NCBI RefSeq assembly: GCF_048403405.1
Contig: NZ_CP183129.1
DNA: 64,000 nucleotides
Strand: one strand, 5' to 3'
Source: Escherichia coli
GTDB taxonomy: Bacteria; Pseudomonadota; Gammaproteobacteria; Enterobacterales; Enterobacteriaceae
In this document: in pieces, positions 151 to 4,107 of the stretch
How positions within the stretch are numbered: position 1 is the first letter of the stretch
Layout: every line of letters starts with the position of its first letter
Notes under the pieces: generated by a model
Told to the model about the DNA's origin: nothing
Databases searched by the model: none
Seen by the model: only the letters and a program-made list of their open reading frames with translations
Position numbers and translations under genes: made by a program

Positions 151-2127
151 ATGTCTGACGACATGTCTATGGGTTTGCCTTCGTCAGCGGGCGAACACGG
201 TGTACTACGCTCCATGCAGGAGGTTGCAATGAGCTCCCAGGAAGCCAGCAAGATGCTGCGTACTTACAATATTGCCTGGTGGGGCAATAACTACTATGAC
301 GTTAACGAGCTGGGCCACATTAGCGTGTGCCCGGACCCGGACGTCCCGGAAGCTCGCGTCGATCTCGCGCAGTTAGTGAAAACTCGTGAAGCACAGGGCC
401 AGCGTCTGCCTGCACTGTTCTGTTTCCCGCAGATCCTGCAGCACCGTTTGCGTTCTATTAACGCCGCGTTCAAACGTGCGCGGGAATCCTACGGCTATAA
501 CGGCGATTACTTCCTCGTTTATCCGATCAAAGTTAACCAGCACCGCCGCGTGATTGAGTCCCTGATTCATTCGGGCGAACCGCTGGGCCTGGAAGCCGGT
601 TCCAAAGCGGAGTTGATGGCGGTGCTGGCACATGCTGGCATGACCCGTAGCGTCATCGTCTGCAACGGTTATAAGGACCGCGAATATATCCGTCTGGCAT
701 TAATTGGCGAGAAGATGGGCCACAAGGTCTATCTGGTCATTGAGAAGATGTCAGAAATTGCCATTGTGCTGGATGAAGCAGAACGTCTGAATGTCGTTCC
801 TCGTCTGGGCGTGCGTGCACGTCTGGCTTCGCAGGGCTCCGGTAAATGGCAGTCCTCCGGCGGGGAAAAATCGAAGTTCGGCCTGGCGGCGACTCAGGTA
901 CTGCAACTGGTTGAAACCCTGCGTGAAGCCGGGCGTCTCGACAGCCTGCAACTGCTGCACTTCCACCTCGGTTCGCAGATGGCGAATATTCGCGATATCG
1001 CGACAGGCGTTCGTGAATCCGCGCGTTTCTATGTTGAGCTGCACAAGCTGGGCGTCAATATTCAGTGCTTCGACGTCGGCGGCGGTCTGGGCGTGGACTA
1101 TGAAGGCACCCGTTCGCAGTCCGACTGTTCGGTGAACTACGGCCTCAATGAATACGCTAACAACATCATCTGGGCGATTGGTGATGCGTGTGAAGAAAAT
1201 GGTCTGCCACATCCGACAGTAATCACCGAGTCGGGTCGCGCGGTGACTGCGCATCACACCGTGCTGGTGTCAAATATCATCGGCGTGGAACGTAACGAAT
1301 ACACGGTGCCGACCGCACCTGCAGAAGACGCACCGCGCGCCCTGCAAAGCATGTGGGAAACCTGGCAGGAGATGCACGAACCGGGAACTCGTCGTTCTCT
1401 GCGTGAATGGTTACACGACAGCCAGATGGATCTGCACGATATTCATATCGGCTACTCTTCCGGCACCTTTAGCCTGCAAGAACGTGCATGGGCAGAACAA
1501 CTCTATCTGAGCATGTGCCATGAAGTGCAGAAGCAACTGGATCCGCAAAACCGTGCGCATCGTCCGATTATCGATGAATTGCAGGAACGTATGGCTGACA
1601 AAATGTACGTAAACTTCTCGCTGTTCCAGTCGATGCCGGATGCGTGGGGGATCGACCAGTTGTTCCCGGTTCTGCCGCTGGAAGGGTTGGATCAAGTGCC
1701 GGAACGTCGCGCTGTGCTGCTGGATATTACCTGTGACTCTGACGGTGCTATTGATCACTATATTGATGGTGATGGTATTGCCACGACAATGCCAATGCCG
1801 GAGTACGATCCAGAGAATCCGCCGATGCTCGGTTTCTTTATGGTCGGCGCATATCAGGAGATCCTCGGCAATATGCACAACCTGTTCGGTGATACCGAAG
1901 CGGTTGACGTGTTCGTGTTCCCTGACGGTAGCGTAGAAGTAGAACTGTCTGACGAAGGCGATACCGTGGCGGACATGCTGCAATATGTACAGCTCGATCC
2001 GAAAACGCTGTTAACCCAGTTCCGCGATCAAGTGAAGAAAACCGATCTTGATGCTGAACTGCAACAACAGTTCCTTGAAGAGTTCGAGGCAGGTTTGTAC
2101 GGTTATACCTATCTTGAAGATGAATAA
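151..2127 (+). CDS. speA: biosynthetic arginine decarboxylase (658 aa)
   Basis: ORF-track 139..2127 begins at TTG; internal ATG at 151 gives [23 protein letters not shown]..., the PLP-dependent arginine decarboxylase N-terminus and length as I recall for E. coli SpeA. Confidence 0.93.
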
Positions 2128-2144
2128 TTAAGATTATTCCGCTG

Positions 2145-2185
2145 GCGGGTCAATTTATTTACGTAAATCGGCCCGCTTTCTTTTT
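2145..2185 (+). terminator. hairpin plus T-tract downstream of speA
   Basis: GCGGG...ATTTACGTAAAT (perfect palindrome)...CCCGC followed by TTTCTTTTT, 18 nt after speA stop. Confidence 0.5.
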
Positions 2186-2272
2186 ATATATTCTTAAAAA
2201 TAATTTAGCTGCTTTTCTTATTAAATAATCCCCCTACAATCGCTGCATTAATTAAATACAGAGGGAACGGTT

Positions 2273-3004
2273 ATGAAAAAAGGGAAAGTACGTAGCGCGT
2301 TGATAGCATTAGCCGTGCTGCTGGCCGGTTGTTCCAGTAATGCGCAGTATAATAGCAGTGCATCAGGCAATGTCGGCACCGCCTGGGGTGGGGATGTACA
2401 CTCATCGGTTCAGGGCGTATCTGCTGAGCGAGCCTGGCGCGATCCGGCAGAGATGATCGTTATTAGTTATTCGACTAATGTTCCTTCCGGCTATGACCGC
2501 GTTTATAGCATTCGTATTAACGAACTGGAATATGCTATTCGCGATGGTAATTTTAATTCTCTACCTATTACGCGTGTTTATGATTCATCCAATAATGAAC
2601 CACGCTATATTGTCCATGCCAGAGTCGGAATGAATTATCAATTATATGTCCGTAATTACAGTCGTAACACCAACTACGAGATCGTTGCTACGGTTGATGG
2701 CCTGGATGTGCTGAACGGCAAGCAAGGTTCGCTGAATAACAACGGCTATATTGTGAATGCCGGAGATTCGTTAGCGATTAAAGGATTCCGCAAAGATAAA
2801 CATACCGAAGCGGCTTTTCAGTTCGCCAACGTTGCTGATTCCTACGCAGCCAATTCGGCGCAAGGCGATGTGCGTAATACCGGGGTAATCGGCTTTGCCG
2901 CCTTTGAATTACAAGGCCCGGCGCAAAACGCGATGCCACCGTGCTCTGGACAAGCCTTTCCGGCAGATAACAATGGCTATGCACCGCCACCGTGCCGGAA
3001 ATAG
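2273..3004 (+). CDS. predicted lipoprotein of unknown function (243 aa)
   Basis: ORF-track 243 aa; N-terminus MKKGKVRSALIALAVLLAGC has a signal peptide with lipobox LAGC and Ser at +2; SD GAGGGA 7 nt upstream; mature part rich in Asn/Tyr/Ser; visibly AT-richer than flanking genes; no family recognised by eye. Confidence 0.75.
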   Translation: MKKGKVRSALIALAVLLAGCSSNAQYNSSASGNVGTAWGGDVHSSVQGVSAERAWRDPAEMIVISYSTNVPSGYDRVYSIRINELEYAIRDGNFNSLPITRVYDSSNNEPRYIVHARVGMNYQLYVRNYSRNTNYEIVATVDGLDVLNGKQGSLNNNGYIVNAGDSLAIKGFRKDKHTEAAFQFANVADSYAANSAQGDVRNTGVIGFAAFELQGPAQNAMPPCSGQAFPADNNGYAPPPCRK

Positions 3005-3072
3005 CAACCTCGCTTGATGCCTCGTCCATTTAAGGCGATAATTAGCGCAAACTTGTGTTTCGCAAATCCAAC

Positions 3073-3111
3073 CCTTCCTCGTCGGGCCTAACGACGCGGA
3101 AGGGTTTTTTT
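3073..3111 (+). terminator. rho-independent terminator between lipoprotein gene and speB
   Basis: CCCTTCCTCGTC-GGGCCTAAC-GACGCGGAAGGG (12-bp stem, one mismatch) followed by TTTTTTT. Confidence 0.65.
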
Positions 3112-3139
3112 ATATCGACTTTGTAATAGGAGTCCATCC

Positions 3140-4060
3140 ATGAGCACCTTAGGTCATCAATACGATAACTCACTGGTTTCCAACGCCTTTGGTTTTTTAC
3201 GCCTGCCGATGAACTTCCAGCCATATGACAGCGATGCTGACTGGGTGATTACTGGCGTGCCGTTCGATATGGCCACTTCTGGTCGTGCGGGGGGACGCCA
3301 CGGTCCGGCAGCGATCCGTCAGGTTTCGACGAATCTGGCCTGGGAACACAATCGCTTCCCGTGGAATTTCGACATGCGTGAGCGCCTGAATGTCGTGGAC
3401 TGCGGCGATCTGGTATATGCCTTCGGCGATGCCCGTGAGATGAGCGAGAAGCTGCAGGCGCACGCCGAGAAGCTGCTGGCTGCTGGTAAGCGTATGCTCT
3501 CCTTCGGTGGTGACCACTTTGTTACGCTGCCGCTGCTGCGTGCTCATGCGAAGCATTTCGGCAAAATGGCGCTGGTACACTTTGACGCCCACACCGACAC
3601 CTATGCGAACGGTTGTGAATTTGACCACGGCACCATGTTCTATACCGCGCCGAAAGAAGGTCTGATCGACCCGAATCATTCCGTGCAGATTGGTATTCGT
3701 ACTGAGTTCGATAAAGACAACGGCTTTACCGTGCTGGACGCCTGCCAGGTGAACGATCGCAGCGTGGATGACGTTATCGCCCAAGTGAAACAGATTGTGG
3801 GTGATATGCCGGTTTACCTGACCTTTGATATCGACTGCCTGGATCCTGCTTTCGCGCCGGGAACCGGTACGCCAGTAATTGGCGGCCTGACCTCCGATCG
3901 CGCTATTAAACTGGTACGCGGCCTGAAAGATCTCAACATTGTTGGGATGGACGTAGTGGAAGTGGCTCCGGCATACGATCAGTCGGAAATCACCGCTCTG
4001 GCTGCGGCGACGCTGGCGCTGGAGATGCTGTATATCCAGGCGGCGAAAAAGGGCGAGTAA
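3140..4060 (+). CDS. speB: agmatinase (agmatine ureohydrolase), 306 aa
   Basis: ORF-track 306 aa [27 protein letters not shown]...; arginase-family Mn-binding motifs (GGDH, DAHTD, DIDCLDP). Confidence 0.93.
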
Positions 4061-4061
4061 G

Positions 4062-4096
4062 CGCCGGATAAGATGCGTTATGCGTCAAATCCGGCG
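4062..4096. repeat. REP-like palindromic element between convergent speB and loiP
   Basis: CGCCGGATaagatgcgttatgcgtcaaATCCGGCG inverted repeat; no T-tract. Confidence 0.4.
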
Positions 4097-4107
4097 TAAT
4101 AAAATGC

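Follow-up and report, generated by a model that had tools for sequence, protein, structure and literature searches.

A stable hairpin followed by a run of seven T residues lies directly upstream of speB, the agmatinase gene, in the 64,000-nucleotide stretch of Escherichia coli DNA that we analysed (the window). Most likely it is a native, leaky intrinsic terminator in the speB leader, common to K-12 and most Enterobacteriaceae. The hairpin sits between the speB promoter (3014–3042, start near 3050) and the speB ribosome-binding site, where polymerase coming from speA, from a lipoprotein gene or from the speB promoter itself would transcribe both the hairpin and its U-run. Some polymerases would be released at the U-run, giving a 3’ end near 3110 and, after a start at the speB promoter, a leader RNA of about 60 nt, while the remaining polymerases would read through to produce speB mRNA. 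The hairpin would thus not block transcription but act as a leaky valve controlling how much of it continues into speB.

Results

The hairpin upstream of speB has the anatomy of an intrinsic terminator

The stem-loop occupies 3070–3106 on the plus strand, and the letters of 3070–3111 are AACCCTTCC-T-CGTCG-GGCCTAA-CGACG-C-GGAAGGGTT-TTTTT. Folded as plus-strand RNA, 3070–3106 forms one single hairpin of 14 pairs, with an outer stem of 9 pairs (3070–3078 with 3098–3106) and an inner stem of 5 pairs (3080–3084 with 3092–3096) separated by a U·C mismatch (3079/3097), and with a 7-nt loop (3085–3091). The original prediction, made from the letters of the window, had placed a 12-bp GC-rich stem and a T7 tract at 3073–3111; the hairpin and the T7 tract are real, and the stem proved to be longer, starting at 3070 and including one mismatch. 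The first two residues of the T-run (3105–3111) close the stem by pairing with the AA at its base, and the expected RNA 3’ end is at 3110. As predicted, 28 nt (3112–3139) separate the T-run from the speB start codon at 3140. This spacer is AU-rich 3’ of the U-run and contains the ribosome-binding site AGGAG (3128–3132). The open reading frame that follows (3140–4060, plus strand) is annotated as speB, and its protein is 100% identical to that of K-12.

The predicted free energy of the hairpin is −24.4 kcal/mol, compared with −13.4 ± 2.6 kcal/mol for 200 dinucleotide shuffles (z = −4.3), none of which was as stable. This bears out the proposal of a strong intrinsic terminator structure, and the hairpin looks functional, given that a Term-seq 3’ end of K-12 falls in the identical T-run. 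The terminator score, calculated with a d’Aubenton-Carafa-type formula and modern energy parameters, is 37.7, where values above 0 predict a terminator. A simple terminator scan did not list the hairpin, probably because its rule disallows an internal mismatch; the miss is a limit of the scan rule and not evidence against the hairpin. The window therefore holds a stable G+C-rich stem-loop with a U-run directly after the stem, and an RNA 3’ end inside the U-run in vivo was found for the identical K-12 sequence only. A role for the minus strand was rejected: it folds as well as the plus strand, but its fold is followed by UUGGAUUUG, not by a U-run, and the U·G pairs would be C·A mismatches there.

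The speB promoter lies upstream of the hairpin

A promoter scan identified TTGATG-17-GATAAT at 3014–3042 on the plus strand (−35 at 3014–3019, −10 at 3037–3042), with a predicted start near 3049–3051, and found nothing promoter-like between this site and the speB ATG. When the promoter regions of the window, K-12, Citrobacter and Klebsiella were aligned, the window promoter was collinear with TTGAAT-17-GATAAT in K-12. The whole segment from the stop codon of the lipoprotein gene to the hairpin in the window is collinear with the segment from the speA stop codon to the hairpin in K-12, with the −35 and −10 boxes in the same columns. The speB control region is thus of the standard type, apart from the lipoprotein gene placed between it and speA.

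The GATAAT box is present in 81 of 84 sequences from SpeB-encoding loci (described below). In 72 of these 81 it stands 27 ± 1 nt from the base of the stem, and the bases between are not conserved. In many genera the −10 box is part of a short inverted repeat, GGCGA-TAAT-TCGCC.

The same hairpin is present in K-12 and in nearly all E. coli genomes

A 1.1-kb query (2100–3200) matched 5425 of 5426 complete E. coli genomes, with at least 80% of its length matched in 3550. In the remaining genomes that were sampled, K-12 derivatives among them, the match starts at window position 3063, 7 nt before the stem. K-12 MC1061 is identical to the window from 3063 through the hairpin, the T-run, the spacer, the AGGAG motif and speB. 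The 49-nt hairpin alone was found in exactly one copy in each of 5425 of the 5426 genomes (at least 99% identity in 5243), which rules out a repeated element, and no annotated feature lies under it in the E. coli records sampled. With an identical K-12 sequence and a single copy in 5425 genomes, the hairpin is not peculiar to this strain. Three further observations concern the matches themselves: one complete E. coli genome had no match to the region, two matches to this chromosomal region fell on records labelled as plasmids, and in NZ_AP045810.1 the 2100–3200 query matched two places, the better of which covered only 57% of the query.

The hairpin between speA and speB in K-12 MG1655 is the same element, identical in sequence from 7 nt before the stem through speB, at the same 28 nt from the ATG and with a collinear promoter upstream. 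The two arrangements differ further upstream. The gene that ends before the control region is speA in K-12 and the lipoprotein gene in the window, the spacer between speA and speB is 137 nt in K-12 and 1012 nt in the window, and speA in the window has its own additional terminator-like hairpin, which is absent from K-12. The original prediction held that the hairpin sets this strain apart from K-12 and that an identical hairpin in the K-12 speB flank would speak against the idea; comparison of the two 5’ flanks revealed exactly such a hairpin, with the same T-run, spacer and ribosome-binding site. As a new regulatory arrangement relative to K-12, the hairpin is thus refuted.

K-12 transcripts both end at the hairpin and pass it

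In MG1655, speB occupies 3082877–3083797 on the minus strand. A Term-seq 3’ end has been mapped at 3083827 on the minus strand, in an entry that also gives the hairpin sequence (Adams et al., 2021, PMC7815308). This position is 30 nt before the speB start and corresponds to window position 3110, the sixth T of the run. The end has a mean read count of 31650 and appears only in the M63-glucose sheet, one of the three growth conditions of the curated list (PMC7815308).

Full-length transcripts determined by SMRT-Cappable-seq include a speB-only unit that starts at MG1655 3083886 (Yan et al., 2018, PMC6131387). This start follows the K-12 −10 box GATAAT by 8 nt and precedes the stem by 19 nt and the ATG by 89 nt. 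The same data set lists speA-speB units that start at 3085928, 3085945 and 3085946, and a yqgB-speA-speB unit that starts at 3086409; no speA-only unit is among the units listed (PMC6131387). Yan et al., 2018 (PMC6131387) also cite RegulonDB for the speB and speAB transcription units. No transcript start is listed in K-12 between the T-run and the ATG, and the Cappable-seq supplement gave no coordinates for this region.

Together, the Term-seq 3’ end and the SMRT-Cappable-seq units indicate that transcripts both end at the hairpin and pass it, and that the speB promoter lies upstream. Because that promoter is 5’ of the hairpin, every mapped K-12 speB transcript must pass the hairpin. The absence of a speA-only unit from the full-length units listed suggests that the leak at this terminator is large, and termination in vivo may therefore be weak despite the strong-looking structure.

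These data bear on what had been predicted about speB expression. A block to read-through from upstream genes is contradicted by the full-length speA-speB and yqgB-speA-speB transcripts of K-12 (PMC6131387), and the 3’-end data place an end in the T-run, yet read-through is documented, the second finding that the prediction had named as evidence against itself. Two routes had been offered for speB itself: reading through the hairpin is indeed needed, as the only speB-specific K-12 start lies upstream of it, whereas a short promoter within 3112–3139 found no counterpart in the scan or among the listed K-12 starts, and the spacer varies between species. The terminator in front of speB is already known from K-12, for which its 3’ end and the transcription units around it have been published.

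The mapped transcripts are all those of K-12 and none are of the lipoprotein-carrying haplotype; by extension from K-12 we expect this strain to behave in the same way. We infer that a fraction of polymerases stops at the hairpin, and the U-run and the position of the 3’ end point to termination, not trimming, as the origin of that end.

An insert separates speA from the speB control region

The first 7 kb of the window, at its 5’ end, are the yqgB-speA-speB-loiP-tktA region of E. coli. As annotation source we used the record NZ_CP128875.1 of TUM14771, which is 100% identical to the window over the 1.1 kb of 2100–3200. The upstream gene of the operon, speA (151–2127, plus strand), is an open reading frame annotated there as speA, encoding biosynthetic arginine decarboxylase, and at 1977 nt it has the K-12 length. 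A 43-aa open reading frame upstream of it (11–142) is the known small protein YqgB. At the other end of the region, the spacer between the convergent genes speB and loiP (4061–4107) is 47 nt in the window and 205 nt in K-12, and it contains a 9-bp inverted repeat, CGCCGGAT...ATCCGGCG.

Relative to K-12, the window has an insert of about 875 bp upstream of the speB control region, with two features. Directly after the speA stop codon is a second terminator-like hairpin (2144–2177, plus strand) with a U-rich tail (2178–2190), which is absent from K-12; the 76-nt stretch 2125–2200 folds at −20.9 kcal/mol (z −3.9). Between speA and the speB promoter lies an open reading frame (2273–3004, plus strand) for an uncharacterised lipoprotein of 243 aa with the lipobox LLAGC. 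It had no match in NCBIfam or Pfam, and its annotations read hypothetical protein, lipoprotein or membrane protein. The gene is present in 3550 of 5426 E. coli genomes, about two-thirds, and occurs at the same site in some Citrobacter, in Kluyvera georgiana, in Klebsiella spallanzanii and in an Enterobacter, with 65–75% amino-acid identity. This patchy distribution suggests either an old polymorphism or exchange through recombination in the conserved flanks.

The post-speA hairpin was present in all nine lipoprotein-carrying loci that were folded, from five genera, and its mean pairwise identity is 0.67–0.68; the stem sequence differs between loci and pairing is kept by compensation. Genomes without the lipoprotein gene lack it. 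Of the six lipoprotein-carrying loci outside Escherichia, three (L015, L020 and L039) have the same −10-box sequence type as the Escherichia loci, TTTAAGGCGATAATTA (window 3030–3045). This distribution hints that the lipoprotein gene and the promoter region may move together.

The hairpin is conserved beyond the needs of a terminator

A search with SpeB yielded 80 species-level loci; 84 sequences were examined, and 62 distinct sequences were aligned. The genera comprise Escherichia, Citrobacter, Klebsiella, Enterobacter, Kluyvera, Lelliottia, Raoultella, Atlantibacter, Trabulsiella, Pluralibacter, Cedecea, Leclercia and others. The core CTCGTCGG..TAACGACGCGG lies 5’ of speB in all 80 species loci recovered, and a T-run of 6–9 bases directly follows the stem in all 84 sequences. 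The hairpin is kept downstream of speA, of the lipoprotein gene and of other inserts alike, and also in loci where the retrieved upstream sequence showed no speA. It is found in Salmonella enterica, Edwardsiella tarda and an Erwinia-like genome as well. Morganella, Providencia and a Sodalis lack it; there, speA and speB are either unlinked or separated by a short spacer. The distance from the T-run to the ATG varies from 24 to 45 nt between species, with variable sequence except for the ribosome-binding site.

Two records in this collection have unexpected labels. The contig CACSKA010000005.1 (locus L076), labelled Chryseobacterium sp. 18061, holds a typical enterobacterial speA-hairpin-speB locus, and an agmatinase labelled Vagococcus sp. 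(P0007) is 88% identical to the E. coli protein. The contig and the second assembly are probably contaminated or mislabelled.

In the alignment of the 62 distinct sequences, 29 columns are invariant, including the GG and UAA of the loop. The U of the mismatch is invariant and its C is kept in at least 90% of the sequences. A standard pair is found in 99.8% of pair cells. Two of the 14 pairs change on both sides, and nine never vary and so are uninformative; one pair is U-A in 44 sequences and A-U in 18, another changes from C-G to U-A once, and one is U·G in 42 and U-A in 20. Because of these U·G wobble pairs, the hairpin appears to act as plus-strand RNA and not as a symmetrical DNA site.

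Across its 37 positions the hairpin is 70% invariant, with a mean pairwise identity of 0.93, whereas 122 four-fold degenerate speB sites from the same genomes are 1.6% invariant with a mean pairwise identity of 0.57. Within the same lipoprotein-carrying loci, its identity is 0.90, compared with 0.67–0.68 for the post-speA hairpin. The hairpin is thus almost invariant across more than 80 enterobacterial species, loop and mismatch included, far more so than synonymous sites and the terminator next to it. Plain terminator function does not account for the invariance of the loop, the mismatch and the inner stem.

Candidate partners for the conserved loop and leader

The terminator lies between the transcript start (in K-12, 19 nt before the stem) and the start codon, as in a leader attenuator, and the minimum-energy fold of the whole speB leader keeps it. 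We found neither a competing antiterminator structure nor a translated leader peptide in this leader, and its 19–20 nt before the stem are not conserved. One peptide that we considered, ..Pro-Arg-Arg-Ala/Val-stop, would use the TAA of the loop as its stop and would carry two Arg codons. It was rejected: 40 of the 84 sequences have no in-frame start, and many of the starts that are present are the TTG of the −35 box, 5’ of the transcript start. Pairing of the loop GGCCUAA with speB codons 4–6 (TTAGGTC, 3149–3155) was rejected as well, for TTA-GGT/GGC is also found in Morganella and Providencia, which have no hairpin, and the Erwinia-like genome and Edwardsiella have the hairpin but CTG or CTA at this place. 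A search of Rfam 15 over 1900–3400 at E ≤ 10 returned only a chance snoRNA match (E 4.1) and no known cis-regulatory RNA or riboswitch family.

Discussion

The anatomy of the hairpin, its identity in K-12, its conservation and the K-12 transcript ends are observations, and a leaky terminator in the speB leader probably accounts for them. The explanation that survives best beside it refines this reading and does not exclude it. The hairpin could be a regulated attenuator, in which a protein or a small cation (agmatine, putrescine or spermidine) binds the invariant hairpin and changes the frequency of termination. All speB transcription, from any promoter, would then be tuned at one point, as every mapped K-12 speB start is upstream of the hairpin. 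Such control could underlie the classical induction of speB by agmatine that Boyle and colleagues reportedly described.

Several observations argue for it. The excess of conservation over four-fold degenerate speB sites extends to the loop GG..UAA and the U·C mismatch, while the ordinary post-speA terminator, at an identity of only 0.67, compensates freely; the −10 box keeps its distance to the stem over unconserved sequence; and a strong-looking structure is apparently leaky in vivo. On the other side, the leader yielded no Rfam match even at the permissive threshold used. Because the part before the hairpin is short (about 19–20 nt) and unconserved, there is no room for a conventional aptamer or antiterminator. 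Moreover, the invariance could reflect the joint constraints on a sequence that is at once the terminator of the upstream gene and part of the speB leader. A literature search found no paper describing such an element in the speB leader, and a full-text search for the hairpin sequence returned nothing. We therefore regard it as a tentative and rather unlikely proposal that an undescribed, sequence-specific attenuator carries all speB transcription, with the loop GG..UAA and the U·C mismatch read by a protein or by a cation of the polyamine pathway.

Comparison with known systems sharpens the proposal. In the attenuators of trp, pyrBI and rph-pyrE, an intrinsic terminator likewise stands between the promoter or promoters and the start codon, and expression needs read-through. 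Those attenuators rely on a translated leader or upstream open reading frame together with alternative RNA structures. The speB leader differs in that it has no conserved leader open reading frame and no conserved alternative structure. Riboswitch expression platforms, too, place a conserved terminator hairpin in the leader of a metabolic gene, but upstream of the speB hairpin there is no Rfam match and no conserved sequence able to form an aptamer.

Within polyamine metabolism itself, premature Rho-dependent termination occurs in the speA and mdtJI leaders, and K-12 has a Rho-dependent 3’ end that falls within the leader and the early coding part of speA (Adams et al., 2021, PMC7815308). The speF leader is another case of leader control of a polyamine gene (PMC6386406). 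The speB hairpin belongs to the same pathway and would likewise put the control point in the 5’ leader; the speA, mdtJI and speF leaders, however, are Rho-dependent and/or depend on an upstream open reading frame, whereas the speB element consists of a hairpin and a U-run with no upstream open reading frame.

An improbable alternative is that the hairpin is an element of RNA stability or processing, which mainly shields the 3’ end of the speA or lipoprotein mRNA from exonucleases once the AU-rich spacer has been cleaved. The upstream and speB messages would then decay independently, and the mapped 3’ end would be a trimming stop; trimming by exonucleases could indeed leave an end at the base of so stable a hairpin. 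According to Adams et al., 2021 (PMC7815308), processing accounts for many 3’ ends; SMRT-Cappable-seq, which records primary full-length transcripts, lists none that ends at the hairpin, while Term-seq, which also records processed ends, does; the AU-rich spacer after the U-run fits as well. A protective hairpin, however, needs no U-run, and a perfect one of 6–9 bases is conserved in all 84 sequences, with the 3’ end inside it, the typical place for the ends of intrinsic termination.

It is more doubtful still that the RNA of about 60 nt from the speB promoter to the U-run is primarily a trans-acting small RNA, with read-through into speB secondary. The arrangement, a conserved promoter directly 5’ of a conserved hairpin that ends in a long U tail, resembles that of many Hfq-binding small RNAs, and the Term-seq count marks an abundant 3’ end. 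Such an RNA would, however, match no Rfam family and would have no conserved seed, because its sole single-stranded 5’ part (about 20 nt) is unconserved between genera; literature searches gave no relevant report that ties speB to a small RNA or to RIL-seq data.

We give very little credence to the model first put forward for this hairpin, in which the terminator insulates speB fully, speB is transcribed from a promoter within 3112–3139 and the strain is unlike K-12. The hairpin does score as a strong terminator, and in the lipoprotein haplotype speA transcripts must pass two terminator-like hairpins. The element is nevertheless identical in K-12, where read-through transcripts are documented, and 3112–3139 has no promoter-like site, no listed K-12 start and no conservation between species. 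Weakest of all is the idea of a DNA element, an operator bound by a dimeric transcription factor, in place of an RNA element: the inverted repeat is a conserved near-palindrome close to a promoter, but the U·G pair in 42 of 62 sequences keeps pairing in the plus-strand RNA and breaks the symmetry of the DNA, and the adjoining U-run is conserved, with an RNA 3’ end mapped in it.

The leaky terminator thus remains the probable reading. It accords with what is known of speB, whose mRNA comes partly from its own promoter and partly from transcription that continues out of speA. The flagged hairpin as submitted changes nothing in this picture, being a standard terminator common with K-12. What does differ in this haplotype is the insert. 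In the two-thirds or so of E. coli genomes with the lipoprotein gene, transcription from speA has to cross two terminator-like hairpins and an additional gene to reach speB, and the coupling of arginine decarboxylase to agmatinase may therefore be looser than in K-12; any such loosening would come from the insert, not from the flagged hairpin. Because it is conserved beyond what a terminator needs and positioned after the speB promoter, the speB hairpin is a candidate, testable at little cost, for the as yet unexplained control of speB transcription. A sequence-specific attenuator at this site, if true, would account for the adjustment of agmatinase synthesis to agmatine or polyamines in Enterobacteriaceae.
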